From the NCBI GenBank assembly GCA_965218495.1, contig OZ244626.1:1030469-1094468 (forward strand): a DNA stretch of 64,000 nucleotides. Reading direction: 5' to 3'. Source of the stretch: Rhodothermales bacterium. GTDB lineage: Bacteria > Bacteroidota > Rhodothermia > Rhodothermales > Bin80. Shown piece after piece: positions 3,821-18,115 of this stretch. The position numbers and the translations under genes were made by a program. The notes beneath the pieces are model-generated. The model ran no database searches. It was not told where the DNA came from and saw only the letters and a list, made by a program, of their open reading frames with translations. The stretch's first letter is position 1. Each line of letters begins with the position of its first letter.

Positions 3821-4810
3821 GTGATTATGCAGCTTACCTTGCCACAAGTCGGGTTCGTGCAGGAATTCGTGGACCCCGCTTTGGATATCTATGCCGAGAT
3901 AGCGCGGCTGAAGCGAGAAAAGAATGCCGTCTTGCTGGCGCACTACTACCAGGAGCCTGCGATCCAGGACATCGCGGACTTTGTTGGAGACTCTTTGGGG
4001 CTTTCTCGTCAGGCGGCAGCAACGGATGCGGACATCATCCTCTTTGCCGGCGTGCACTTTATGGCAGAGACGGCCAAGATCCTGAATCCAGCCAAGAAAG
4101 TAATCCTGCCGGATCTCAATGCAGGATGTTCGCTGGCGGACTCGTGCCCGGCGGATGAATTCGCTGCATTTTGTGAGCGGCACGCAGATCACCTCGTGAT
4201 TTCGTACATCAACTGCACGGCCGGCGTAAAGGCGTTGAGCGACATCATCTGTACCTCGACCAATGCCGAGCACCTGGTGCGCCAGATTCCACAGGGTCAG
4301 CCGATACTGTTCGCGCCGGATCGCAACCTTGGCCGTTGGCTGATCCGCCAGACCGGGCGCGAGATGAAGGTGTGGGACGGCGCATGCATAGTCCACGAAA
4401 CGTTCAGCGAGCGGAAGCTGGTGGGTCTAAAGGTTCGGAATCCCGGAGCGCTGGTCTTGGCGCACCCTGAGTGCGAGGAGCCGGTCCTGCGCCATGCCGA
4501 CTTCATAGGGTCTACCAGTGGCATTCGTCGTCATGCGCGCGAGAGTGACGCAAAGCAGTTCATCGTGGCGACTGAGGAGGGCATCTTGCACCAGATGCGG
4601 AAGGATTGCCCGGACAAGGAATTCATCCCCGCGCCGCCTGAAAGCGGTTGCAACTGCAGTCAGTGTCCTCATATGCGCCTGAACACGCTGGAGAAGGTGT
4701 ACCTGTGCCTGAAACATGAGCAGCCTGAGATCATTCTCGAGGAGGAGCTGCGTGTGCGTGCACTCGCCCCGATCGAGCGGATGATGGAAATGAGCACAGG
4801 CGTCTCATAA
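3821..4810 (+). CDS. nadA: Quinolinate synthase A
   Basis: Full-length NadA-like sequence ([31 protein letters not shown]-terminal CNCSQCPHM cysteine cluster). Start is GTG 3821 or ATG 3827. Confidence 0.95.
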
Positions 4811-4812
4811 CC
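4537..4812 (+). repeat. Direct repeat copy 1 (functional nadA 3' end)
   Basis: This 276-nt stretch recurs without indels at 6591-6866 (offset 2054 nt). By eye roughly nine of ten positions are identical. Exact identity was not computed. Confidence 0.85.
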
Positions 4813-4868
4813 TGAACAGTGCTTCCTGTACCTTATCGCTTTGCGCTACTGCAACAGACGCAGACTCC

Positions 4869-5264
4869 ATGAAACGATGGACATACACCAGAGGCAGGAG
4901 CCTGTGGCTTTTGGAGCGTACCTATCGGCGGTACGACTGGTTTACCAAGAATATGCCTGTCATATGGTTAATATTTCTTGCTGGTAGCCTTGCAGCTATC
5001 GCAGCTATTGCGGCAGTACTGGTTTACCTGGGTCCGATGCGTGCCTTCACCTATCCTGTCATGTGTACAGTCGTGGTGTATGCCTGGCTTTTGCTGGTCC
5101 AGCTTCGCCCTGACCTTGCAGTCAGATTGACGTGGAAGCTAAACCCCAGGAAGCTGCACCCGTCCGTTGAGCAAGAATCCGAGGAGATGCTACGACGCGT
5201 GGCGTGGCTAGCCGGGAACGGTACGCCGCCGGAGGGGTGGCGGTCCATATTTGAGAAGGATTAG
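4869..5264 (+). CDS. Small two-TM membrane protein, paralogue A (unknown function)
   Basis: 131-aa ORF with two hydrophobic helices. Clear protein-level paralogue at 6026-6424 (MKRWTY...SLW..E..Y N-terminus; VVVYAWLLL.Q.RPDLAVRL.WKL.P.KLHPSVEQE..EMLRRVAWL.G.GTPPEGWRS C-terminus). Confidence 0.55.
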   Translation: MKRWTYTRGRSLWLLERTYRRYDWFTKNMPVIWLIFLAGSLAAIAAIAAVLVYLGPMRAFTYPVMCTVVVYAWLLLVQLRPDLAVRLTWKLNPRKLHPSVEQESEEMLRRVAWLAGNGTPPEGWRSIFEKD

Positions 5265-5567
5265 AACGCCCACCAACACCCGCGCGCATGTCAAGCGCGG
5301 CAATTCAGATTGAACGCAGCGCAGTGCCCGCCGGCTGTGAACAGGACCGAAGAAACTACTGCTATCTATGCGGTGGCCACGCTACGCGGATAGGGTAAAG
5401 CGCTACGTCGCTGACGTGGCCACTCGGTGGGGACTTCGAACGTTGGCCGTAGCCTCTCGTACGTGTGCGGGATAGGCGCACAAAAAGCACCCTGAGTGAT
5501 TAATCAAGTCAATTCTGAACTCCGCATCCGGTGGATTTGGAATGCCCAGACCGATTGAAGCTGAACA

Positions 5568-5598
5568 CCCTGGCAGCTGTAGCTCCGCGCTGCCAGGG
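5568..5598. other. Perfect 10-bp stem / 11-nt loop hairpin
   Basis: ccctggcagc (5568-5577), tgtagctccgc, gctgccaggg (5589-5598). Lies about 90 nt upstream of the IS21-like remnant in otherwise non-coding DNA. Confidence 0.4.
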
Positions 5599-5685
5599 AC
5601 TGAATCGGCCTAGTCTTTGCATCGCTGGAGTTTGGCCGCCACCCGGGATTATCATCAGACCTTCGTTCTCAAACGGAGACCCCGA

Positions 5686-5940
5686 TGCCCAAAAGACGCA
5701 CCATCTGTGCGAAGAGTCAGAGATATGCTTGGTCTGCAATATCTTGAATGATTCAGCAAGCGCAAGATCGCTCGCTGCCTGGACAATGCCGTCGGCGCGG
5801 TCACCGCGTATCTGTCCCGCGCTGAGCAAGCTGGCCTGGGAGAGAGGGATCTAGAACTGTGCCGGAAACTTGAGCATCCGGGAGATCGTTTTCGACCGGC
5901 GTGCTTCACCTTTGTGCTCTCGCGCCCATCGAAAGGATGA
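5686..5940 (+). mobile_element. IS21-family transposase (IstA) N-terminal HTH remnant, truncated and stop-interrupted
   Basis: One frame reads VRRVRDMLGLQYLE*FSKRKIARCLDNAVGAVTAYLSRAEQAGLGERDLEL. This resembles the IstA N-terminus pattern I..VLRL.....LS.R.IAR..GIS..TV..YL.RA.AAGLSWPL. In-frame TGA at 5749-5751. No DDE catalytic domain follows. Confidence 0.45.
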
Positions 5941-6025
5941 TGAAGCAAGGGCACCAGCGTATTATAGCCAGAGCGGCGCTGCCCGCGCATCATCGTTCCA
6001 AACAACTAGAGCAGACTCAGACATC

Positions 6026-6424
6026 ATGAAGCGCTGGACATACTCCAGAGACAAGAGCCTTTGGATCTTGGAGCAAATCTATAAGCGGTGCGAACGGCGC
6101 ATCAGATCCACGCGTGTCCTTTGGGCTGTCGTTGGATTTAGCACTCTTCTGTTTGTCATCTGTGAATCGGGGCTTGCTATTCTGGACGGATTTGACCCGA
6201 TGAGAATTCTGCGCGATGCTGCCCTAGTGGTCGTAGTGTACGCGTGGCTTTTGCTGGCCCAGTTCCGCCCAGACCTTGCAGTCAGGTTGGAGTGGAAGCT
6301 GTATCCCAAGAAGCTGCACCCATCTGTGGAGCAAGAGTGGAACGAAATGCTGCGACGCGTGGCTTGGCTGGTCGGGCACGGTACGCCACCAGAGGGGTGG
6401 CGGTCCAGGTCTGCAGAGGATTAG
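6026..6424 (+). CDS. Small two-TM membrane protein, paralogue B (unknown function)
   Basis: Internal ATG of ORF 5870-6424. The sequence from MKRWTYSRDKSLWILEQIYKR onward aligns end to end with 4869-5264. The upstream 52 codons of the track ORF have no counterpart. Confidence 0.5.
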   Translation: MKRWTYSRDKSLWILEQIYKRCERRIRSTRVLWAVVGFSTLLFVICESGLAILDGFDPMRILRDAALVVVVYAWLLLAQFRPDLAVRLEWKLYPKKLHPSVEQEWNEMLRRVAWLVGHGTPPEGWRSRSAED

Positions 6425-6563
6425 ACTGCCTGTCTTCATTAGCTTATACATGAATCGTGGCAGGGTACTCCACATGCGGCGCAAAGCCTGCCGATCGAAG
6501 GCAGAACGGAAGGACCTAGGGCCATCAGCGTGACGGCCTCACTACTCGCACTGGTGGAATGCG

Positions 6564-6917
6564 CTGCGGCACTGGCGGTGGTCACTATAGCGCGAAAGCT
6601 ACGCAAAGCAGTTCATCGTAGCTACTCAGGAGGACATCTTGCACCAGTGGCGGAAAGATTGACCGGACAAGGCATTCATCCCAGCGCCGCCCGAAAGCAG
6701 TTTCAACTGCAGTCAGTGTCCTCATGTGCGCGTGAATGCGCTGGAGAAGGTGTACCTGCGTCTGAAACACGAGCAGCCTGAGATCATTCTCGAGGAGGAG
6801 CTGCGCGTGCGTGTACTCGCCCCGATCGAGCGGATGATGGAAATGAGCACAGGCGTTTCGAAGCCAGCCTCGCCTTGCCCGCCGTTCGCAGGTACAAGAG
6901 GTGCTGCGAAGGGCTAA
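6564..6917 (+). pseudogene. nadA 3'-terminal fragment (pseudogene)
   Basis: In the nadA frame this reads [89 protein letters not shown]. In-frame stops at 6588-6590 and 6660-6662 (TGC Cys to TGA). A conserved Cys is changed (GCNC to SFNC). The nadA stop is replaced by AAG, so the frame runs on to 6915-6917. Confidence 0.8.
6591..6866 (+). repeat. Direct repeat copy 2 (decayed nadA 3' end)
   Basis: Co-linear, indel-free match to 4537-4812. Weaker similarity continues about 30-40 nt further upstream. Confidence 0.85.
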
Positions 6918-8275
6918 AACAGTAATCTAACGCCCGCAAAGGGCTCAAAGCGCCGCTGCACGAGATAGCGAGGCGCGTCCACGCGTGCGACCAGCTCGAA
7001 GGAATAGCGTGCCAGCACATGCAGATAAAACGGACCCAGAATACGGTAGTCCGTGCCAAACACAAGTGCGCTCTGGTCATCAAAGTCTTCGAAGATGCCC
7101 AGGAAGCCGGCGGTGCCCAGCTTATCTATTCCGACCTCAAAACGAAGCCTGCTTCCACTTTGCACAAAGAGCCGAAAGTGAAACTCGCTTAGCGCCTGAC
7201 TGCCAAAGTGGCGTCGATAGTAATACCACAATGAGAAGCTAGGCGCCACTTCCAGCTTAAATTCCGTGAGCAAGTCGTTCGCGCCGCGACTCTCCTGAAT
7301 TGGCACGCCGGCAACACCATTCCCTGAGGCCTTCAGTATGCGCGCATGGACGTTGTGCACGGAATACAGCGAACCCACATACCCTGGGATGAATTGCCTG
7401 CTGTTGTAGAATACGCCGATCCGAAGTCTGAAGGTGACGAGGTCCAGGAATTCTGCGGCATGCAGATCTGCGCCAAAGGCCAGCCCGTCGCCGTAGTCCG
7501 GATACCACGCGTAGCTTAGGTATGGCGCGAAGCCCACGCCTCCTGTAGCAAACAGCTCGACTTGCAGGTCTGCGCTGTACGCTTCAAGACGCGCGTTCGG
7601 GGCTCGGTCTATCACGTAGTTGACCCCAAGTTGAGTGGTGCGCGCCGACAGACCACGCGAAAAAAAGAGTGGGTGTGCGGTTACGCGCCCACCAGCTATG
7701 CCTCCCAAGAGCACATCCCCCGTGAAGGCGGCTATGGTCAGCGCCCGACCACCATAACTGAATTCGGCGCCAACCGTCCGGCGGTCCCACGCAACGGAGG
7801 TGCTGTAGAAATTCACTACGTGTCCGATGCCGAGCCGCATCCCATCCAACAGGCCCACGCGGAGATGAATGGGCCGCGACTGCGGCGCATTGTAGCGGGC
7901 GAAGTCCACGAGCCGAAGAATGTCGTAGGGCTCATCAACATCTGGAGCATAGCGTCCCAGCGGCCCCGCTCGTAGCGTGCCGATGAGGCGCATGGTAACC
8001 GGGCGCGTAACCAGCTCCAGCCGCGCACTAGCCGCTGCGCGCCACTGAGCACCAATGAGTGATAGGCCGCCCATGGCGAAGAGGGCTTTTTCACGACGCC
8101 ACCACTGGGGCTGCAGCTGTTCCCTGAGGTCACCCTCCGAGCCAAACGGTGTCGGCTGCGCCACAGCGGGAGGAGCGAGGAAGCAAATCACCAAAAGTAG
8201 CGCAGCATTTCGCGCAAACAGGACTGCAGGGCCGCGCAGCCGCGCCTTCGCGAAACACTTAAGCCAGGATCTCAT
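6914..8275 (-). CDS. Hypothetical outer-membrane beta-barrel protein
   Basis: Start chosen at the internal Met (MRSWLKCFAKARLRGPAVLFARNAALLLVICFLAPPAVAQ, signal-peptide-like). Strand-like sequence throughout, with terminal ...FEPFAGVRLLF. The 62-codon upstream extension in the track ORF would run into the divergent gene at 8287. Confidence 0.6.
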   Translation of the reverse strand: MRSWLKCFAKARLRGPAVLFARNAALLLVICFLAPPAVAQPTPFGSEGDLREQLQPQWWRREKALFAMGGLSLIGAQWRAAASARLELVTRPVTMRLIGTLRAGPLGRYAPDVDEPYDILRLVDFARYNAPQSRPIHLRVGLLDGMRLGIGHVVNFYSTSVAWDRRTVGAEFSYGGRALTIAAFTGDVLLGGIAGGRVTAHPLFFSRGLSARTTQLGVNYVIDRAPNARLEAYSADLQVELFATGGVGFAPYLSYAWYPDYGDGLAFGADLHAAEFLDLVTFRLRIGVFYNSRQFIPGYVGSLYSVHNVHARILKASGNGVAGVPIQESRGANDLLTEFKLEVAPSFSLWYYYRRHFGSQALSEFHFRLFVQSGSRLRFEVGIDKLGTAGFLGIFEDFDDQSALVFGTDYRILGPFYLHVLARYSFELVARVDAPRYLVQRRFEPFAGVRLLF

Positions 8276-8286
8276 TCGATCGTAGT

Positions 8287-8904
8287 ATGAGATTGCCCCT
8301 ATTCCCGCTAGGCGTCGTGCTTTATCCGTCTGAGCTGATGCCGCTGCATATATACGAATTGCGCTACCGAACCATGACCAAGCGGTGCCTCGATGAGGAC
8401 CAGCCCTTCGGGGTGCTATGCACGGATGACGGCAAGATGGCTGACGTGGGCTGTACCGCACGCATCGCGCGCGTCTTGCAGCGCTACAACGATGGCCGGC
8501 TGGACATACTCATTGCTGGAGAACAGCGCTTTGAGGTCCTTGCGCTCTACGACAACCGGGCGTACCTGACAGGCGACATCTGCTACCTGGAAGATGCACG
8601 CGAAGTTCCGCAGCGGAACGTCGTCGAACGTGTGATCGCGCAACATATGCGGCTGCTGGAAATTGCCGGACGCAAGATACGGCCTTCCGTGTACCGTGAG
8701 GCGGAAACGGTATCCTTTCTCATCGCGCGAAGTGCCGGGCTTACGCTGCAGCAAAAGCAGGAACTTCTGGAATTCCCCAACGAGCAGGCACGCATCGAAT
8801 TCCTCATCAAGCACTTTGAGGGCTTCATTCCGCGGATAGAAGAGACGCAGACGCTGCGAACGAAGATTCAGTCCAACGGCCACTTGGAACTCGGTGATCT
8901 GTGA
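8287..8904 (+). CDS. LON N-terminal (substrate-binding) domain protein
   Basis: MRLPLFPLGVVLYPSELMPLHIYELRYR... matches the Lon protease N-domain opening motif. 205 aa, with no AAA+ or protease domain. Confidence 0.8.
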   Translation: MRLPLFPLGVVLYPSELMPLHIYELRYRTMTKRCLDEDQPFGVLCTDDGKMADVGCTARIARVLQRYNDGRLDILIAGEQRFEVLALYDNRAYLTGDICYLEDAREVPQRNVVERVIAQHMRLLEIAGRKIRPSVYREAETVSFLIARSAGLTLQQKQELLEFPNEQARIEFLIKHFEGFIPRIEETQTLRTKIQSNGHLELGDL

Positions 8905-9761
8905 TGCCGCAAGTAGGGCCTTATACGCTCTATGCTATTGAGGCGGGCCGCTTCCGCCTGGATGGTGGAGCCATGTTCGGCGTGGTGCCCAAGACGGTTT
9001 GGGAGAGGCGCGTGGCAGCCGACAGCCGTAATCGGATACAGATTCAGATGCGCTGCCTGCTATTGGAGGGCGAAGGGCGGCTGATTCTGATCGACACCGG
9101 AGTGGGACACAAAGAAAACGCGTGGTTTAACGATGCCTTTGCCGTTGACTTCACGCGCTGCGACTTAGAGCGCAGCCTCCACGCCGCCGGCTTTACGCTT
9201 GCCGACATAACCGACGTCATCCTGACCCATCTCCACTTTGACCATGCGGGAGGGAGCACCAGGCGAGTAGGTGAACAAGTGGTGCCGACGTTTCCCAATG
9301 CTACCTACTACCTTCAGCAGGGCCAGTGGGAAACGGCCCTCGCCCCCAACGTGCGCGAAGCGGCCTCGTTTATCCGGCATAACTTCATGCCGCTGCGCGA
9401 GGCTGGGCAGCTTGTGCTGCTGCAAGGTGCGCAAAACCTCTTCCCAGGCATTGATGTCCTTGCGGTACACGGGCATACTCGGGCGCAGCAGTTGGTAAAG
9501 ATGACGGGTCCCGAGGGTTCGCTGGTATTCGTGGCTGACCTCTTTCCAATGTCCCACCACGTGCGGGCGCCTTGGGTAATGGCTTATGACGTTCAGCCGC
9601 TGCTCACGCTCGCGGAAAAGGAGCACTTCCTGCGAGAAGCGCACGAACAGGGCTACAACCTGTTTTTTGAGCACGATCCCGACACAACGATCGCCAACAT
9701 AGTGGAGGGTCCGCGTGGATACGCAGCAAGCAACAATCGTACTTTAAACGAGCTTTTCTAG
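8901..9761 (+). CDS. MBL-fold metallo-hydrolase
   Basis: THLHFDHAGG (HxHxDH) motif with later His/Asp ligands (VHGHT, FEHD). 4-nt overlap with the upstream gene. Confidence 0.85.
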   Translation: MMPQVGPYTLYAIEAGRFRLDGGAMFGVVPKTVWERRVAADSRNRIQIQMRCLLLEGEGRLILIDTGVGHKENAWFNDAFAVDFTRCDLERSLHAAGFTLADITDVILTHLHFDHAGGSTRRVGEQVVPTFPNATYYLQQGQWETALAPNVREAASFIRHNFMPLREAGQLVLLQGAQNLFPGIDVLAVHGHTRAQQLVKMTGPEGSLVFVADLFPMSHHVRAPWVMAYDVQPLLTLAEKEHFLREAHEQGYNLFFEHDPDTTIANIVEGPRGYAASNNRTLNELF

Positions 9762-9898
9762 AAACCTTTTGCGCGAACCGCAGTATCAGCGAGCTAGAGT
9801 CAACACGCACGCATATAGGCGCAACTGCTACCGAATACCCAGTTTGTCGCATTGCGGATGCCAGGCATCTGCCTAAGTACCACGAAATCGTAAGGCGC

Positions 9899-12800
9899 GT
9901 GCGTTTGCGTAAGGTCAGTATTGTCTTGCTGTTGGCAAGTGCGCTTGCTGCTATTGGGGCGCATGCTCAGCAAGTCCAATTCCGTCAGGTGGAGGCAGAG
10001 GACACCAGGGAGGTCTACGAGCTTCTCGCCTCATGGAGCAGCCCGCTGGTGCAGCAAAGCGAGCCCCTTGATGCCAACGGGCTGCGGATCCTTACGCAGG
10101 GCGGACTCTTCGAGCGTACCGCTACCCTGCATTTGGCCACGCTGGCCCAACCTGCGGTGCGTGTCCTGGCGGCCGACTTTGATGAGGTTGCAGCGACGGT
10201 GCAACCTGAAGTGGTGCACCCGATGGGTGGCCTCCCCGCGGAGGTCGTAGGGCTTGGCCTGCATCGAAAATCACCTGCAGCCACGCTGGTGGTTCGCACA
10301 GTGACATTTGACGGCACCGTGCTTAGGCGCTACCGCCGCCTGTTGGTTGAAGTCACCTGGGCTGGAGGGCCTGCCGTGCAGCCTGCAGGCAATAACCCGC
10401 ACCTCAGCGTGAGCGAGAGCGTGCTGGCTTCAGGTACGATATTCAAGATTCCAATTGTGCAGGAAGGCATCTACCAGATTGACCGGACCTTCTTGGCTGC
10501 GTTGCCAGGACTCGGCATGAGCCCGAACTCCATAGATCCACGGGACGTTAGGGTCTACGGCAACGGGGGAATGCCCGTGCCGGCCCTCAATAGCGATCCA
10601 AGACTGGCTGACCTGGTCGAAATCCAGGTCTTCGTACAAGGCGGCGGAGACGGCTCTTTTGACAACGGTGATGCAGTGTGGTTCTATGGGGCCGGCCCTT
10701 CGGGCTGGCGTAGTGTGCACCTTCGTGACAGCCGAAGTGAGCTGCGCTACGACACATCAGGCAGCCCCATTGTGGAGTGGCAGCACTATGTGCATCCCTA
10801 TTCAAATGAGAACTACTACTTCATCAAAATTGACGATCAGGACAACACCGAGTTCACGCAGGCATTGTATCCTGGTGTGGCGGGAGCGACTGAGCTCACG
10901 CAGGTCCTGGGGCGCCACTACGTGGACTTTGATGAGTTTCTCTGGGCTCGAAGCGGCGAGAGCGGCCATACGTGGGTCAGCAGACCAATTCAGGACAGGG
11001 GCACCCTGACTGTGCTTGACAACGTGCCACTGCCCGGTCTCCAAAGCGGGAAGATCGCCTATCATGCTCGGCCCGCGATCAAGAGCAACCCGGCTGCTTC
11101 GGTTTTTTTTCTCTCTGGGAGCACCACGCTGGCCAGCGTGAATTTTGGGGCTACTTTCGGCAGCAGCGCTACCACCCCCATTGCGCGCACGGGTGTGGCT
11201 GTCTTTGAACAAGATGTCAGCGCCAGCCAGCAGGTTTCCATGACTATGGAGATTGAGAATATCGCAGGCGGGCCGCAAGCTGCCCTGGACTGGCTACGCG
11301 CATACTACCCGATGGTACCGGCACGGTCCGAACCTCCCCTGCGCCTGCATACGCCGCTGAAGACGGCAGGCACGTTCACGTTGACACTCCAGGGGTTTGC
11401 CACAGAGCCCTTTGTGCTGGACATCACCACACCGGGCGCATACACCTGGCTGGGCACGGAGCGGGTCGGCAATGATTATCGCATTCAGGCTACGTCGGAC
11501 GAAATCCTTGCGCCCAGAGAGCTCATTGCCTTTGATGCCGGGCATGTCACGCCCCTGGTTGCCGCTGAATTGTGCCCTGCTGACATCGGATGCCGGGTTG
11601 CGCAACAAAACCTGCACGGCATCGCTGCCTACCCGGACTTTGTCATCATCACGCCGGCGGAATTTGCCAATCAGGCGGAGGAGCTTGCCACGATTCGTCG
11701 CAATGAAGGACTCACCGTCGAAGTCATTGACGTGCAGCAGATCTACAACGAGTTTTCCGGCGGGCTGCAGGATGTGCGCGGCATCCGTGATTATCTGAAA
11801 TTCCTCTACGACCGCGCGCCCAGCGAGGACGAGCTGCTCCGGTATGTTCTCTTTTTCGGCGATGGCCATTACAACTATCGCTCCATCAATGTGGACGAAA
11901 ACGTGCTGACCAACTGGATTCCGCCCTTCGAAACCGAGGAGTCCTTTGTCCCGGAGACGTCCTATACCACTGACGACTACTTCGGGCTATTGGATGACAA
12001 CGAAGGGCTGTGGCCGTTTGTGCGTCAGAGCTTTCGTGGGCCCAGTGCCTATCTGAACGAACGCGTGGACCTAGGCATCGGGCGCTTAACAGTTACGACA
12101 CAGCAGCAGGCGCAAACGGTGCTTGATAAGATTAAGCACTACGAGAGCCCACAGAACTTTGGCCCTTGGCGCAAACGCTACGTTTTTCTGGCTGACGATG
12201 GTCCCACGGGCGCCGCAGGCACGCAGGACGACAAGGACCTGCATACGCAGAATACGGATGTGGTTGCCGAGATGGTGGAAGAGGTGGCCCCGTATATCAA
12301 TCAAAAAAAGGTCTACGGCATATCGTACCCTCGGGAATTCTTAAATGGCTGGAGGATGCCGCGTGCTCGACAGGACGTCCTGACAGCGATCAATGATGGT
12401 GTATTGATGTTCAACTTCAGCGGCCATGGCAATGAGCATGGGCTGGCGCAGGAAGATCTATTCAACGCCGACGATGCGGTTTCGCTGACGAACTACGATG
12501 TCCTGCCCATCTTCATTACGGCGACATGCTCTTTTGGGCGGTGGGATCAGTCGGATACCCAGAGCGGGGCGGAGGTGCTCCTGCTCAGCAGTCAGGGTGG
12601 CGCCATCGCGCTGCTGACGACGGTGCGCACAGTGTACACTTCGGGTGATGCGTCAAGCCTTAACGTGGGCCTGAATGTCGCGCTGAACAAAGAGCTGTTT
12701 CAAAGAGGAGCGGACGGGCTCATGCCTCGTCTGGGCGATGCGCTTCTTTCGACAAAAAATGTGCGTGTTGGGTACGAGGGCAACAACCGGAAGTTCAACC

Positions 12801-13936
12801 TCTTGGGCGATCCGACACTGCGTGTCGGTGTACCTGCTCCACATGTCGTGGTGGAGTCCGTCAATGGCGTAGATGTGACACAAGGGACAACGGACATCAA
12901 AGCGCTTGAGCGCGTCACGCTGGAAGGTCGCATTGAAACGGTTGATCGGCAGTTTGATGCGTCATTTGACGGCACGGTAACCCTGACCGTCTTCGACGCA
13001 GAGCGACGTGTGGCGATTCCACCCGACATTCGGCGTCACATGCTCAATCCATACTATCGGGTACGCGAGGACCTTATCTGGGCCGGCCGCACCAAGGCGA
13101 AGGCAGGGCGCTTTGCGGCCACCTTCGTGGTGCCTAAGGACATTTCTTACAGTGACAAGCCGGGGCGTATCTCGGTCTATGCCGCCAGCGACCAGTCGCA
13201 CGCGCAGGGGTATACTGATAACATCATTGTAGGCGGAACGGCAGGCGAGTTCCCCGATGATGACCTGGGCCCCGTCATAGAACTATACCTGGGTGACGAA
13301 ACGTTTACTACGGGCGGCCTCACTACAAGCACGCCCGAAGTGCTCGCCAAAATCTTTGATGAAAGTGGTGTCAACACGGTCGGTGCGGGCGTGGGCCATG
13401 AGATGCTGCTGGTGCTGGATGAAAACGAAGAGGACGCGGTGAAGGTCGGTGCGCTCTACGAGAGCGAAGAAAATTCGTACCAACGTGGCACGGTGCAATA
13501 CAAATTCAACGAACCATTGACTCCGGGCATGCATACGCTGTCCATGCGCGCCTGGGATGTGCTAAACAACTCAGGTTCGAGCACGCTCGAGTTTGTGGTA
13601 GCCGATGAAGCACAGCTGGTGGTACGCAACGTCCTCAACTATCCCAATCCGACCACCGGGCCGACCCGGTTCGTGTTCGAGCATAACCAGGTGCCTGGCA
13701 CGCCCGTCAGCGTGCAAGTGCGCATCTATTCGCTAGCCGGGCGCCCTGTGCGCACGATAGAGACCGATGACGCGCTTCCCGGCGGTGCGATGCAGATCAT
13801 CTGGGATGGCACAGATGATGATTATGCCAGGCTGCCTCCCGGCGTGTACCTATACAAGGTACGCGTCGAGACGCTAGGTAGCGGAGGTGAGCGCCAGGTT
13901 TCTGAAATCATCGAGAGGCTAGCCATCATTCGCTAA
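9899..13936 (+). CDS. porU: T9SS sortase PorU (peptidase C25 family)
   Basis: GTG start and signal peptide. Gingipain-like core with FSGHGNEHG (His) and TATCSFGRWD (Cys). C-terminal T9SS CTD (NYPNPTTGPTRFVFE...RIYSLAGRPV...YLYKVRV). Followed by porV. Confidence 0.9.
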   Translation: MRLRKVSIVLLLASALAAIGAHAQQVQFRQVEAEDTREVYELLASWSSPLVQQSEPLDANGLRILTQGGLFERTATLHLATLAQPAVRVLAADFDEVAATVQPEVVHPMGGLPAEVVGLGLHRKSPAATLVVRTVTFDGTVLRRYRRLLVEVTWAGGPAVQPAGNNPHLSVSESVLASGTIFKIPIVQEGIYQIDRTFLAALPGLGMSPNSIDPRDVRVYGNGGMPVPALNSDPRLADLVEIQVFVQGGGDGSFDNGDAVWFYGAGPSGWRSVHLRDSRSELRYDTSGSPIVEWQHYVHPYSNENYYFIKIDDQDNTEFTQALYPGVAGATELTQVLGRHYVDFDEFLWARSGESGHTWVSRPIQDRGTLTVLDNVPLPGLQSGKIAYHARPAIKSNPAASVFFLSGSTTLASVNFGATFGSSATTPIARTGVAVFEQDVSASQQVSMTMEIENIAGGPQAALDWLRAYYPMVPARSEPPLRLHTPLKTAGTFTLTLQGFATEPFVLDITTPGAYTWLGTERVGNDYRIQATSDEILAPRELIAFDAGHVTPLVAAELCPADIGCRVAQQNLHGIAAYPDFVIITPAEFANQAEELATIRRNEGLTVEVIDVQQIYNEFSGGLQDVRGIRDYLKFLYDRAPSEDELLRYVLFFGDGHYNYRSINVDENVLTNWIPPFETEESFVPETSYTTDDYFGLLDDNEGLWPFVRQSFRGPSAYLNERVDLGIGRLTVTTQQQAQTVLDKIKHYESPQNFGPWRKRYVFLADDGPTGAAGTQDDKDLHTQNTDVVAEMVEEVAPYINQKKVYGISYPREFLNGWRMPRARQDVLTAINDGVLMFNFSGHGNEHGLAQEDLFNADDAVSLTNYDVLPIFITATCSFGRWDQSDTQSGAEVLLLSSQGGAIALLTTVRTVYTSGDASSLNVGLNVALNKELFQRGADGLMPRLGDALLSTKNVRVGYEGNNRKFNLLGDPTLRVGVPAPHVVVESVNGVDVTQGTTDIKALERVTLEGRIETVDRQFDASFDGTVTLTVFDAERRVAIPPDIRRHMLNPYYRVREDLIWAGRTKAKAGRFAATFVVPKDISYSDKPGRISVYAASDQSHAQGYTDNIIVGGTAGEFPDDDLGPVIELYLGDETFTTGGLTTSTPEVLAKIFDESGVNTVGAGVGHEMLLVLDENEEDAVKVGALYESEENSYQRGTVQYKFNEPLTPGMHTLSMRAWDVLNNSGSSTLEFVVADEAQLVVRNVLNYPNPTTGPTRFVFEHNQVPGTPVSVQVRIYSLAGRPVRTIETDDALPGGAMQIIWDGTDDDYARLPPGVYLYKVRVETLGSGGERQVSEIIERLAIIR

Positions 13937-13955
13937 CGTACATCAATCAATTTCT

Positions 13956-15158
13956 ATGGTAATGCACTCTTATTCTCTAGGCCGATTGCATGCGCAAACC
14001 CTTGTACTGCTGGCTGTGACGGCAGGTCTGCTGCCATTGGCACGGCCCCTGCAGGCCCAGATCGGAGGGGCTGCGGTTGTGTTCCTGATGATTGAGCCGG
14101 ACAGCCGTTCGGCCGGCATGGGCAATGCAGGTGTAGCGCTGGCAGACAACGCTAACGCGATATTCTGGAATCCTGCAGGTCTTGCAGACCAGCGTGGTAT
14201 GGAGATTGGCATCACGCACTCGAACTGGCTACCGGAATTCAACGCCGGTCTTTACTACGAATACTTAGTTGCTAAGCAACATTTTCAGGGATGGGGCACA
14301 TTTGGAGGCCACCTCACCTACCTGTACCTCGGTGAGCATGATCACCGCGATGCGCAGAACCAGGATTTGGGCACGTTTAGATCGTACGACCTTGCGGCTG
14401 GGCTTTCCTGGGGAGGCAAGGCTTTTAAGAACCTCTCCGTAGGTACCGGGGTACGCCTGATCTATTCCAGCCTAGCCAATGTGTCGGTAGGTGCCCAAAA
14501 GACCAACCCGGGTGTCTCCGTAGGCGTAGACGCTGCAGCACTGTACAAGGCACCTGAATTCTGGCTCGGGCTCACCACAATTAACTACAATGTGGGCTTT
14601 AACCTAGCCAACATGGGGCCGAAGATCCAGTACTCCGACAGCGAGCAGGGCGACCCCATTCCGACCTATCTGCGCTTTGGGCATGCGCTCACATTCAGGT
14701 TCGACGACTACAACAAGATCACTCTGGCCAACGATTTTTCGAAGATCCTCACGCGCCAGCGGGTGAGCGAAGTCTGCCTAGACCCCACCGACAGCGAAAC
14801 CTGTGACCTTGAATACGATGCAGACCCTTTCTACAAAGCCATCTTTTCGGCTTGGACGCCGATATCGGTAGCCCGTGGTGCGGCCGACGACGATGAGCAG
14901 AAGCTTGAGTCGCTATCCATAGTTGATCAGCTACTGATCTCTACCGGGTTTGAGTATTGGTATCACGATCTGTTTGCTGCGCGAGCGGGGTATTTCTACG
15001 AAAACCCCTACAACGGGGACCGCCAGTTTTTGACCTTCGGTACGGGCCTGCGGTGGAACATCGTGGGCGTAGACTTCTCGTATATATACGCACTGGAGGA
15101 GAACCACCCGCTAGCCAATACGATGCGTTTCTCGCTTTTACTCAATCTGGCCCGCTAG
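13956..15158 (+). CDS. porV: T9SS outer-membrane shuttle/channel protein PorV (LptO)
   Basis: Signal peptide followed by FLMIEPDSRSAGMGNAGVALADNANAIFWNPAGL, the hallmark N-terminal motif of the PorV family. 400-aa barrel-like protein 19 nt after porU. Confidence 0.9.
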   Translation: MVMHSYSLGRLHAQTLVLLAVTAGLLPLARPLQAQIGGAAVVFLMIEPDSRSAGMGNAGVALADNANAIFWNPAGLADQRGMEIGITHSNWLPEFNAGLYYEYLVAKQHFQGWGTFGGHLTYLYLGEHDHRDAQNQDLGTFRSYDLAAGLSWGGKAFKNLSVGTGVRLIYSSLANVSVGAQKTNPGVSVGVDAAALYKAPEFWLGLTTINYNVGFNLANMGPKIQYSDSEQGDPIPTYLRFGHALTFRFDDYNKITLANDFSKILTRQRVSEVCLDPTDSETCDLEYDADPFYKAIFSAWTPISVARGAADDDEQKLESLSIVDQLLISTGFEYWYHDLFAARAGYFYENPYNGDRQFLTFGTGLRWNIVGVDFSYIYALEENHPLANTMRFSLLLNLAR

Positions 15159-15172
15159 CACGGGGCGTGCAT

Positions 15173-18115
15173 ATGGGCGCCGGGACTCGTGCCCTGTGCA
15201 TAGTGTTTATGGCAGTTTGGGCGGCAGTGGGCGCCCGCGCCCAAGTGCATTCACACTACGATGTGGTTGCGCTCCGGGTGGAGTTTCAGCCGGACACCAC
15301 GCGCTTCACAACTGGAGACGGGACGCTTGATGGGTTGCGGTGGGGGAGCGGACTGGATCCCAAGGTCGATCCGCTTCCGCATGATTCCGGATACTTTCAG
15401 GCGCATCTCACTTTCCTGGAGGATTATGTCCGGAGCGTTTCAGGCGGGCGCACCACGCTGAATACCTACCTTGCGCCAGACGTTGTTCGCGTTGCGCATG
15501 AAATGGGAACCTACAGCCCCGTAGGTATGGGGGCGGACAGCGACACGGAGCGGATCAAGCTTGTGCGCCTGGTAGAGGAGGCCTGGTCACTGGCCAATGG
15601 CCCAAGCCAGCTCGACTTGTCTCGCCTAGATCCGGATCGGACCTTTTTTGTGCTATTCCACGCCGGGGTGGGGCGAGACGTGGAGTTGTTGGGCACGGTT
15701 CTCGAAAAGACTCCCTTGGATCTTCCATCACTCTACTTCAGTGAATCCGAGCTCTTGCGCCTGGGCGTCACGGGCCTTGCGTACAGTAACCTACCTGTCA
15801 CGAACAGCGCTATCGTGCCACGCACGGAGTCCCGCCTGGGGTACAACAGCATCACGCAGGATTCGCTGCTGCTGGAACTGTCCATCAACGGCCTTTTGGC
15901 ATCGAGCTTTTTCAGTTTCCTAGGTGTGCCGGATCTCTTCAACACTGCGACCGGGGAGTCGGCCATTGGTGGATTCGGACTCATGGACCCGCAGGGCATC
16001 TTTGCGTATGCGGGAATGATACCGCCGGCACCGACGGCATGGACCCGGCAGCGCCTCGGCTGGCTTGAGCCGCTGCAGCTCCAGGGGCCTGGGCCAATTC
16101 AGGTTACGCTGCCTACTGGCAGTGCCGCGCGCGCCAGTGTTTCGACGGCGGAGTACTTTCTCATCGAGAATCGCCAGCGTGATGCGGATGGGGACGGCCT
16201 GGTGCTGCGCGTGTGGCAAGACGGACACATTGTTGAGCAGCGAGTGGACGCCATCTCAGACACCTTTAGCCGCTTCAATGTAGATGCATTTGTAGGTGGC
16301 GTCGTAGTGGGCGCCGACGACTATGACTTTGCCTTGCCAGGCCGCGACGCCGACGGCATGGAGTACGCGGGCGGAATTCTAATCTGGCATGTGGACGAGC
16401 GGGTCATAGCGACAGGGCAGGTGAATGCAAACCCGGACTTCCGTGGGCTTGATCTGGAAGAAGCCGATGCGGCCCAGGACCTCGGGCATAACAATACCCC
16501 GGGTTCGCCGTTTGACTTTTTCTTTGAAGGCAACGATGTCCGGGCGGTCCTGCCGAGCGGACGCGAAATTCAGTTCTACGAGAATCGATTCGGGCCCACT
16601 ACCACGCCGTCGAGCATTGCGAATGATGGCGGGGAGAGTTTCATCACGCTGACGGACTTTTCTGCGCCGGGACCTGCGATGACGTTTACTTACCAGCAGA
16701 AGGCTGCGTATGGTATTCGCCCGGAAGAGGATGTCAGCCTTGGTGCAGCCGTAGGGAGAGGCAGCTCCGTGGGTGGGGGTGAAGGTTTCACGTTTGTGTT
16801 CCAGCAAGGAACACCCAACCGTGTCACGATCTTGATGGACGACTCATCGTTCAGCATGGTATCGCATGTGCGCCCCGTGGCCGTGAGGAACACGATCACT
16901 GTGCTGCAGGAGGGCGACGTAGCAGGTGGACAAGCACTAAAGACGATTGGCTTGCCCGACCAGGGGATCACGGAGGTGCGTCCACTGCCGGCGTCTCTGT
17001 TGGAATACGTCGCACAGGGCCCGCTGATTGCATCCGAAGACGGCGCCATACATGTGCTGCTTACCAACGAGGCGGAAACAGCCTTGCTGACAGCTCATGT
17101 TGGTGGGGCCATGGAGACGCAAAAGTTTCCGGCCGGTGGCATGGGTCTCGCATTGGCGCCGGATGGCACTGTGCTGGTCATCGGTCGAACGTACGTTGCG
17201 AGGGCCAGCGGCGCCATGCTGTGGACATTTGATGAGGGGGGCAAGGCGGCGTTTGCCGAAAGCCCCGACGGGCTCCTGGGCGCTATGACGGTGCCGGCGG
17301 CAAACGCCGTACGCATCCTGGCCACCAGGCACCATGCCATCACGATAGATGTTACAGCGTATGTGGGCGAGCCTGCAACGCTTTCAGACTACGTCACGCT
17401 GGCGGACCTTGACGCAGACGGCGCGCACGAGGTAGTGACAACGGCGGGCGAACACCTTTTGGCCTTTGAGCTTGGCGGCGCTATGGCGGCTGGATTTCCT
17501 GTTCGGCTGGGCGCCACGCTGATTGGGCAACCACTGGTAACGTCACGCACTGAGGGCGTTGCCTTGATGTTGGTCGCTTCAACCAATGGTCTGGTCTATG
17601 CTGTTGAAGGCGGCAGGCAGGTGCCTGGCTTTCCGCTGAGCGTGGGTGGAAGCATTCTGGCAACCCCTCGCCTGTCGGAAGGGCGCCTAGAAGTGGCTAC
17701 GTCCGAGGGCGTGCTGCGCACGTACTCCATGGCCGACACCGGGGTCCTGCTTTGGGGGGAGCAGCACCAAAACAGCGCCAACACGAACTTTGCTGCTCCA
17801 GCCACTCCAGCCACACCGCCTGCCGGGGCCAGACTACTCGTAGCCAGCGAAACCTACAACTGGCCCAACCCGGTGAGGAAGGGCGTAACATTTTTGCGCC
17901 TGATGACCTCGGTGGATGCGGCAGTGAGTGTCACCATCGTGGACATGGCGGGCACCGTAGTACATGAATCCGCCTTTGACGTGCGAAGCGGCAGCCCCGC
18001 GGAATACCGGTGGCAAGCCGCCATTGAGAGCGGGCTGTACTTTGCGCGCATAAGGGCCACAAGCTCTGATGGGCGCACCGATACACGCCTGGTCAGAATC
18101 GCTGTGATCCGGTGA
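15173..18115 (+). CDS. T9SS CTD-sorted protein with M6-like (immune-inhibitor-A-type) protease-fold domain lacking HExxH, plus FG-GAP/propeller-like region
   Basis: Start at the internal Met (MGAGTRALCIVFMAVWAAVGARAQ signal peptide). M6-like landmarks are VVALRVEFQPD, LFHAGVGRD, LGVPDLF, GGFGLMD, LGWLEP, ILIWHVDE and LEEADAAQDL. The position expected for HEFGH reads SSFFS. FG-GAP-like DLDADGAHEVV and repeated GFP motifs. CTD NWPNPVRKGVTFL...GLYFARIRA. Confidence 0.75.
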   Translation: MGAGTRALCIVFMAVWAAVGARAQVHSHYDVVALRVEFQPDTTRFTTGDGTLDGLRWGSGLDPKVDPLPHDSGYFQAHLTFLEDYVRSVSGGRTTLNTYLAPDVVRVAHEMGTYSPVGMGADSDTERIKLVRLVEEAWSLANGPSQLDLSRLDPDRTFFVLFHAGVGRDVELLGTVLEKTPLDLPSLYFSESELLRLGVTGLAYSNLPVTNSAIVPRTESRLGYNSITQDSLLLELSINGLLASSFFSFLGVPDLFNTATGESAIGGFGLMDPQGIFAYAGMIPPAPTAWTRQRLGWLEPLQLQGPGPIQVTLPTGSAARASVSTAEYFLIENRQRDADGDGLVLRVWQDGHIVEQRVDAISDTFSRFNVDAFVGGVVVGADDYDFALPGRDADGMEYAGGILIWHVDERVIATGQVNANPDFRGLDLEEADAAQDLGHNNTPGSPFDFFFEGNDVRAVLPSGREIQFYENRFGPTTTPSSIANDGGESFITLTDFSAPGPAMTFTYQQKAAYGIRPEEDVSLGAAVGRGSSVGGGEGFTFVFQQGTPNRVTILMDDSSFSMVSHVRPVAVRNTITVLQEGDVAGGQALKTIGLPDQGITEVRPLPASLLEYVAQGPLIASEDGAIHVLLTNEAETALLTAHVGGAMETQKFPAGGMGLALAPDGTVLVIGRTYVARASGAMLWTFDEGGKAAFAESPDGLLGAMTVPAANAVRILATRHHAITIDVTAYVGEPATLSDYVTLADLDADGAHEVVTTAGEHLLAFELGGAMAAGFPVRLGATLIGQPLVTSRTEGVALMLVASTNGLVYAVEGGRQVPGFPLSVGGSILATPRLSEGRLEVATSEGVLRTYSMADTGVLLWGEQHQNSANTNFAAPATPATPPAGARLLVASETYNWPNPVRKGVTFLRLMTSVDAAVSVTIVDMAGTVVHESAFDVRSGSPAEYRWQAAIESGLYFARIRATSSDGRTDTRLVRIAVIR

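Follow-up and report, generated by a model that had tools for sequence, protein, structure and literature searches.

The stretch of DNA analysed here, called the window in what follows, comprises 64,000 nucleotides (nt) of the genome of an uncultured Rhodothermales bacterium (assembly GCA_965218495.1, contig OZ244626.1, positions 1,030,469 to 1,094,468 of the forward strand) and contains nadA, the structural gene for quinolinate synthase, followed by an insert of 1.8 kb and by a direct repeat of the nadA 3' tail. Database annotation places the start of nadA at 3827, giving a product of 327 aa. The nearest relatives as judged by nadA are all Rhodothermales metagenome-assembled genomes, and the window region also has genes for PorU and PorV of type IX secretion. 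Three copies of the nadA tail (c1, c2, and c3) and two related small genes (X1 and X2) lie between the body of nadA and a convergent gene resembling those for outer membrane proteins (OMP). The features are listed below, where identities to L082 refer to a genome of the sister species and dN/dS is the ratio of nonsynonymous to synonymous divergence.

3821..4810, plus strand: nadA (quinolinate synthase), intact; Pfam NadA with E = 2.5e-120; dN/dS 0.11 against the sister species
4537..4812, plus strand: c1, the live nadA tail and proximal repeat arm; last codons GTC TCA TAA versus ancestral GTT TCG TAG
4813..4868, plus strand: IG1, the spacer that separates nadA from X1, with homology to IG2; 93% identity to L082
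4869..5264, plus strand: X1, orphan-family gene whose product of 131 aa is small, all helical, and probably located in the membrane; dN/dS 0.94
5265..5694, no strand: spacer A, without recognisable coding remnant; 84% to L082 with an 11-nt indel; no Pfam match
5695..5890, plus strand: remnant of the N-terminal helix-turn-helix of an IS21-family istA; in-frame stop at 5749-5751; runs into c2
5857..5965, plus strand: c2, third nadA tail, short (last ~110 nt) and frame-shifted; 65-73% to c1, c3, and the tails of relatives
5966..6025, plus strand: IG2, spacer between c2 and X2; aligned with IG1
6026..6424, plus strand: X2, paralogue of X1, 132 aa; dN/dS 0.17
6425..6571, no strand: spacer C, at the distal limit of the insert and devoid of recognisable features; 87% to L082; no Pfam match
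6572..6866, plus strand: c3, displaced nadA tail, a pseudogene with two in-frame stops (TAG, TGA), a Cys to Phe exchange, and its own stop TAG changed to AAG
6867..6913, no strand: native nadA-OMP intergenic stretch, spaced as in the empty sites of relatives (~4-55 nt)
6914..8461, minus strand: convergent OMP-like gene, the native neighbour of nadA; synteny in L002-L004, L165, L172, and L179

The repeat is defined by 270 nt of the nadA tail (4537-4806), which recur at 6590-6859 without gaps and with 90.4% identity (blastn, E = 7e-104). A preliminary description of this DNA had placed the distal copy at 6591-6866 without indels; the gapless repeat was recovered, and the coordinates proved to be one base off, as the offset between c1 and c3 is 2053 and position 4538 pairs with 6591. 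The homology ends on the right at ~4812/6865, a few bases beyond the nadA stop codon, and on the left at ~4519. The weaker similarity said to continue upstream amounts to about 18 nt at most (4519-4536, with one indel) that are not significant alone, and no significant similarity between c1 and c3 was detected farther upstream than ~4519. The lesions reported for the distal copy were all found: in-frame stops TAG at 6588-6590 and TGA at 6660-6662, nadA having TGC at the latter position, loss of a second conserved Cys (GCNC to SFNC), and AAG in place of the nadA stop TAA, which extends the frame to 6917, into the stop codon of the convergent gene (6914-8461). An annotation of 6572-6866 should record a fragment of a nadA pseudogene and no genes for the short open reading frames (ORFs) within it.

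The preliminary description had given the order of the repeated parts as A-B...B'-A' and had overlooked the third tail; the actual order is A-B ... a-B' ... A'. When the window was compared with itself, c2 (5857-5965) was about 70% identical to 4703-4812, and its homology runs on through the intergenic stretch into X2 (4703-4936 aligned with 5857-6093, 70%), followed by a second aligned block within the X genes (5070-5265 with 6230-6425). That X1 and X2 are paralogues, as had been proposed, is borne out by 54-55% amino acid identity (tblastn). The full arrangement is therefore c1-IG1-X1 ... c2-IG2-X2 ... c3-OMP, in which the three tails and both X genes all point the same way. The tails outnumber the units by one (n+1 for n) and no X follows the last tail, an arrangement predicted by integration or amplification and not by tandem duplication.

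An artefact of assembly, which had been named as a way in which the repeat might be spurious, is practically excluded. The copies differ at 10% of sites, and the same layout is seen in assemblies from other samples. L174, an independent assembly of the same species, matches over 10.8 kb at 99.96% identity, and the sister species (L081/L082, the latter name standing below for this pair's 4.25-Mb contig) keeps the same order along 16 kb, with 91.5% identity. The sister species shares with the window the three tails, both X genes, the IS21-like scrap, and the TGA of c3, and a 755-nt contig from its lineage (L083) carries the tail-X1 unit. The insert is present in all three assemblies of the window species and its sister, and so is fixed in the material available and older than the separation of the two.

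In order to decide which of the long tails is the original one, the gene order around nadA was compared among Rhodothermales. The conserved order is lolD-nadA facing the convergent OMP gene, a LON-domain gene, an MBL gene, and porU. In relatives with an empty site (L002, L003, L004, and L171/L172), the stop codons of nadA and OMP lie ~4-55 nt apart; in the window this place, 47 nt from the OMP stop, is taken by c3 and not by the live tail. The terminal codons give the same polarity. Outgroup nadA genes (L165, L169, L170, the nearest relatives) end in GTT TCG TAG, exactly as does c3 of L082, and c3 of the window has GTT TCG AAG. The live nadA ends in GTC TCA TAA in all three insert-carrying lineages and then reads into IG1-X1. 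Its last 7 nt thus hold three changes from the ancestral state, each synonymous or affecting the stop, and changes derived in c1 number three in 9 nt versus roughly three in the 188 nt upstream (P ~3e-4, binomial estimate). As c3 has the place next to OMP that belongs to nadA where the gene is intact in relatives, and as its terminal codons are of the ancestral type, it is the displaced original, and because the end of c1 is non-ancestral and continuous with the insert, the incoming DNA appears to have brought its own nadA end. These comparisons uphold the earlier proposals that the 3' end of nadA received an insertion, for which the repeat anatomy and the empty sites in L002-L004 and L171/L172 speak together, and that the distal copy is the displaced original. 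The accompanying proposal that the proximal copy is borne by the incoming element may hold for the last 7 nt and IG1, which are non-ancestral. The rest of c1 looks native, and a distant source can be dismissed: its identity to L165 is 82%, versus 79% for the 5' part of nadA. With c1 no farther from relatives than the remainder of the gene, the donor would have been closely related, or else the crossover was situated near the right end; within 4707-4803 the comparison is blurred by gene conversion.

The same data bear on a scheme in which no nadA end came from outside, the nadA tail having been duplicated in tandem first, unrelated DNA having then been inserted between the tails, and the tail-X unit having been duplicated later. 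Direct repeats are a hallmark of duplication, and both long tails are native-like over most of their length. However, such a scheme needs at least three events together with an insertion exactly at the joint of the duplication, and it leaves unexplained both the three changes in the last 7 nt of c1 relative to the ancestral c3 and the identical tail-spacer-X junction of c2. Moreover, what follows c3 is only native intergenic DNA and OMP, with no second downstream segment, and the three tails are accompanied by two X genes. The misfit with a simple tandem duplication, which the preliminary description had already asserted, was thus confirmed by the native DNA and OMP (and not an IG-X segment) after c3 and by the unequal numbers of tails and X genes, and we regard an origin by tandem duplication as quite improbable.

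The distal tail is not only displaced but decaying. Between window and sister species, coding genes are 90-96% identical, spacers 83-87%, and c3 85%, so that c3 and the spacers apparently evolve at a neutral rate, the highest in the region. The TGA and the Cys to Phe exchange of c3 are common to both species, from which it follows that c3 was dead before the species split; thereafter a 1-nt indel causing a frameshift arose in L082, and only the window lost the stop. The decay that had been claimed for the distal copy is therefore well founded (shared TGA, an extra frameshift in the sister species, divergence of ~15%). Selection on both copies in relatives, which had been named as an observation that would speak against displacement and decay, was not seen: the sister species shares the layout, but its c3 diverges at the highest, apparently neutral rate.

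Although c3 is dead, its sequence remains in contact with that of the live gene. Site patterns were compared over four sequences, c1 and c3 from the window and from the sister species. In 4523-4706, 15 sites group by copy, whereas 6 sites in 4734-4798 group by genome, with one further by-genome site at 4627; within 4707-4803 there is no by-copy site, and nowhere in the four-sequence comparison is there a site with the crossed pattern. Over 4707-4803, c1 and c3 are 96% identical within the window and 91% within L082 versus 87-88% across genomes. These patterns show that the last ~100 nt of c1 and c3 were homogenised by gene conversion, independently in both lineages and after their split, since comparison with outgroups reveals that, in either lineage, c1 and c3 have derived states in common. 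The synonymous divergence (dS) is 0.32 in the live tail and 0.14 in the rest of nadA, and this roughly twofold difference hints that some changes passed from the pseudogene into the live gene.

Exchange of this kind might suggest that the distal copy has been retained because it is useful, whether as a silent cassette that donates sequence to nadA, as a transcribed segment, or otherwise. Sequence does flow between c1 and c3, and the dS values fit an import of changes from c3. Nevertheless, c3 diverges as fast as the spacers, it carries the shared TGA, the frameshift of L082, and the stop loss of the window, it has no Rfam match, and in a further genome of the same species (L173) insertion sequences (IS) lie at window positions 6005-6009 and 6522 with synteny lost beyond, if that assembly is accurate. 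A retained function of c3 is accordingly exceedingly unlikely.

The DNA between the tails was searched for signs of its origin. The AlphaFold model of the X protein is all helical and of low confidence (predicted local distance difference test score, pLDDT, of 67). The X family is small, with three clusters only in a search of 5.8 billion proteins and eight matches in an exhaustive profile search, and it has no match in Pfam, NCBIfam, PHROG, or PADLOC. For X2, 24 of the 38 differences from the sister species fall at third codon positions, indicating purifying selection; in L082, a TGG to TGA change (10373-10375) removes the last eight residues of X2, the gene being otherwise under purifying selection. 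The insert has not decayed throughout: X2 is a maintained gene. In X1, 21 of the 28 differences from the sister species crowd into 5005-5103, mostly at first or second codon positions, a stretch that encodes a hydrophobic, predicted helical segment; the flanks of this patch are ~98% identical, and the rest of X1 together with IG1 is ~93-98% identical, a closer agreement than neighbouring housekeeping genes show at synonymous sites. Gene conversion from X2 to X1 was considered as the cause of the variable patch and rejected, because some of the derived states arose in one lineage and some in the other. Conservation is also seen in the short tail c2: 103 of 108 positions (95%) are identical to L082 (P = 6e-4 against a background of 15%), and the flanking non-coding DNA is 83-87% identical. 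c2 may hold the promoter or 5' leader of X2; a simple scan of c2 found no sigma-70-like promoter. Rfam, promoter, and terminator scans of the region gave nothing, and spacer C has no similarity to sequence upstream in nadA.

The remnant of an IS21-type transposase that had been reported between the tails could be upheld in part. The peptide encoded by ~5695-5890, with one stop bridged, matches the N-termini of annotated IS21-family istA proteins with 40-49% identity and E values of 1e-4 to 2e-2, over roughly 45-57 residues resembling a helix-turn-helix (HTH); the assignment is weakly supported, as the scrap gave nothing significant against Pfam and NCBIfam. Compared with IS21-family insertion sequences, the likeness is confined to this part of IstA, and the window scrap differs in having an in-frame stop and in being without a DDE domain, istB, and element ends. 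It is a secondary passenger and not the cause of the nadA repeat.

The junction of nadA and OMP was also inspected in relatives, in which it turned out to be variable. Besides the empty sites mentioned above, the nearest outgroups L165, L170, and L179 carry other, unrelated inserts, not empty sites. In L170 (nadA 87% identical), a large serine recombinase of 556 aa with Resolvase, Recombinase, and Zn-ribbon domains begins 270 nt past the nadA stop; genes for a PDC-S01-like DUF4143 ATPase and a large DUF8371 protein come next. Its interval 8985-16984 also encodes a small HTH protein, the DUF8371 protein measures 1401 aa, no OMP gene lies within the visible 8 kb, and a protein search returned no OMP homologue from the 1.05-Mb contig of L170. 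In L179, a PDC-M55A-like AAA_15 ATPase, a candidate defence gene (E 1e-76), occupies 11276-14104, where nadA is expected; L179 has the closest OMP outgroup found (67% by tblastn, 74% by protein search), and nadA is absent from it up to the contig end. L165-type genomes have 430 non-coding nt at the junction, and L001 has a 1-kb insert with two small ORFs. The 430-nt gap of the L165-type genomes was tried as related DNA and discarded, as it bears no relation to the window insert or to nadA. Taken together, the occupants show that the nadA/OMP junction is an insertion hotspot in this clade, and the element with the serine recombinase in L170 shows that mobile DNA uses it. The L170 element and the window insert share the same chromosomal junction, right after the nadA stop, but they have no sequence in common, and in the 8 kb available for L170 there is no duplicate of the nadA tail. 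Serine recombinases neither need nor create long repeats.

From these observations, a Campbell-type insertion of DNA with a replacement 3' end probably took place in the nadA tail, and the locus would be its fixed scar. Circular DNA with a nadA tail, a short spacer, and a small membrane-protein gene X would have recombined with the chromosomal nadA tail; this composition of the incoming module is suggested by the way in which c2-IG2-X2 parallels c1-IG1-X1. The live gene would have kept its own 5' part and gained the incoming end, stop codon, spacer, and X, and the original tail c3 would have been left to decay 2 kb downstream, beside the native convergent OMP gene. The second unit (c2 and X2) may stem from a second, older or more diverged related module inserted at the same place, or it may have arisen when unequal crossing-over between the flanking tails amplified the unit. 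The identity of X1 and X2 of only ~55%, that of c2 and c1 of ~70%, and the slow evolution of c2 and X2 favour a second insertion; with regard to amplification, it has to be considered that gene conversion makes the c1-c3 pair appear younger than its true age. An IS21-family element presumably landed in the insert later and was mostly deleted, probably together with the left part of c2, and such an insertion and deletion may have trimmed c2, since the scrap runs into its left edge. Any recombinase would have disappeared before the two known sister species diverged, and at least X2 seems to have been retained by selection.

Several results weigh against an insertion of this kind. In the 1.8-kb insert, no remnant of an integrase, recombinase, phage, or conjugation gene was found; a Pfam scan of every stop-free spacer segment gave no match, and tblastx against the L170 recombinase element was also negative. 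The insert has no similarity to phage, plasmid, or viral-contig collections, and scans of IMG/VR with the X alignment, the nadA C-terminus, and the L170 serine recombinase were all empty. Hence the description of the insert as an integrative element is not supported. Beyond its last 7 nt, nothing marks the c1 tail as foreign. Paralogues of X elsewhere (L176, L177, and L178) lie in IS-rich regions with no nadA tail beside them. The nadA loci of 80 other species, for which flanks of up to 10 kb on each side were fetched where the contig allows, hold no second nadA fragment (tblastn, E <= 1e-3), and nadA is therefore not a recurrent target of this kind. Likewise, an intact element of this type was not encountered in any genome, a scan of JGI metagenomes with nadA yielded no relative closer than 75%, and a literature search found nothing on nadA as an attachment site. 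Finally, any crossover core has been erased by gene conversion, so that site-specific and homologous integration can not be distinguished from it.

The lack of a recombinase remnant and of phage, plasmid, or viral similarity would equally be expected if no mobile element had taken part and a circularised chromosomal fragment of a close relative (nadA tail-X-...), taken up for example by transformation, had entered by a RecA-dependent single crossover within the 276-nt homology. The closeness of the c1 tail to relatives, which equals that of the rest of nadA, agrees with such an origin, a long imperfect homology (276-295 nt) suits homologous over site-specific recombination, and the tail-to-tail gene conversion proves this homology to be recombinogenic. 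On the other hand, no known genome has X natively after nadA, two related modules at one site are easier to obtain with a site-preferring element, and L170 has a recombinase-bearing element at the same junction. We consider a purely RecA-dependent origin a serious possibility, albeit an unlikely one. A different proposal, that 'tail + spacer + X' is a recombinase-less, homology-guided cassette that spreads via the nadA 3' end among related Rhodothermales, would explain the serial diverged modules, the 95% conservation of c2, and the purifying selection on X2; we think it very improbable, and very improbable too its corollary that the X promoter lies inside the tail and the relic tails are functional parts and not debris.

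Interpreted as the scar of a Campbell-type insertion, the locus is of a familiar, ordinary kind and not a new system. In Escherichia coli K-12, e14 (and phage 21) inserts in the 3' end of icd, leaving the icdC pseudogene (PMC6379469; PMC13626634, citing Hill et al. 1989), and e14 supplies the last ~160 nt of icd, the icd tails recombining on excision (PMC6379469; PMC13626634). The window shows this topology in a different gene and phylum, and both cases share an insertion inside the 3' end of a housekeeping enzyme gene with a replacement end supplied, a 5'-truncated original tail left at the far side as a pseudogene (~160 nt in icd, ~276 nt in the window), and two tails that stay recombinogenic. 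By the same accounts, e14 retains its integrase and ~15 kb of prophage genes and still excises, whereas the window has 1.8 kb with two small membrane-protein genes, an IS scrap, and nothing mobile, and it has three tails, not two, in an arrangement fixed across species.

Tandem accretion at one attachment (att) site is a second point of comparison, as it occurs in islands targeting tRNA or transfer-messenger RNA (tmRNA) genes and in composite staphylococcal cassette chromosome (SCC) elements at the 3' end of rlmH. There too, n elements are accompanied by n+1 direct repeats of the target 3' end, with related units side by side and the target intact. However, the repeats of those islands and SCC elements are short cores (15-50 nt) associated with recombinases, and the repeats of the window consist of 110-276 nt of diverged coding sequence, with no recombinase.

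The locus would thus add a documented case, beyond the enterobacterial models, in which the 3' end of a protein-coding gene was replaced by incoming DNA and the original end survives as a pseudogene. Two sister species show such a scar outlasting speciation, and its dead tail keeps exchanging sequence with a live gene of an essential pathway. The current understanding of integration mechanisms is left unchanged. The nadA/OMP junction can be flagged as a variable site at which relatives hold an element with a serine recombinase and candidate defence genes.

A more recent rearrangement of the same region was observed in L173, whose contig has 2x coverage; the rearrangement rests on this low-coverage assembly. 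An IS630-like element (DDE_3, 332 aa) occupies 8184-9327 of L173, inserted at window positions 6005-6009 with duplication of CTAG, just upstream of X2. From 9846 onward, a Tn5/IS4-like transposase (756 aa) ends the synteny at window position 6522 and is followed by an NADH-dehydrogenase gene.

The product of the convergent OMP-like gene ends in Phe and has no Pfam or NCBIfam match. The ORF of 515 aa overlaps the LON-domain gene (8287-8904) by 175 nt, and because databases call a product of 453 aa, the true start is probably near 8275. Farther along the same syntenic block, the empty-site relatives L171/L172 have ~4.7 kb (10967-15692) between the LON-domain and MBL genes, containing fragmented Mrr_cat and ResIII genes as well as small ORFs, and this interval constitutes a second variable spot.

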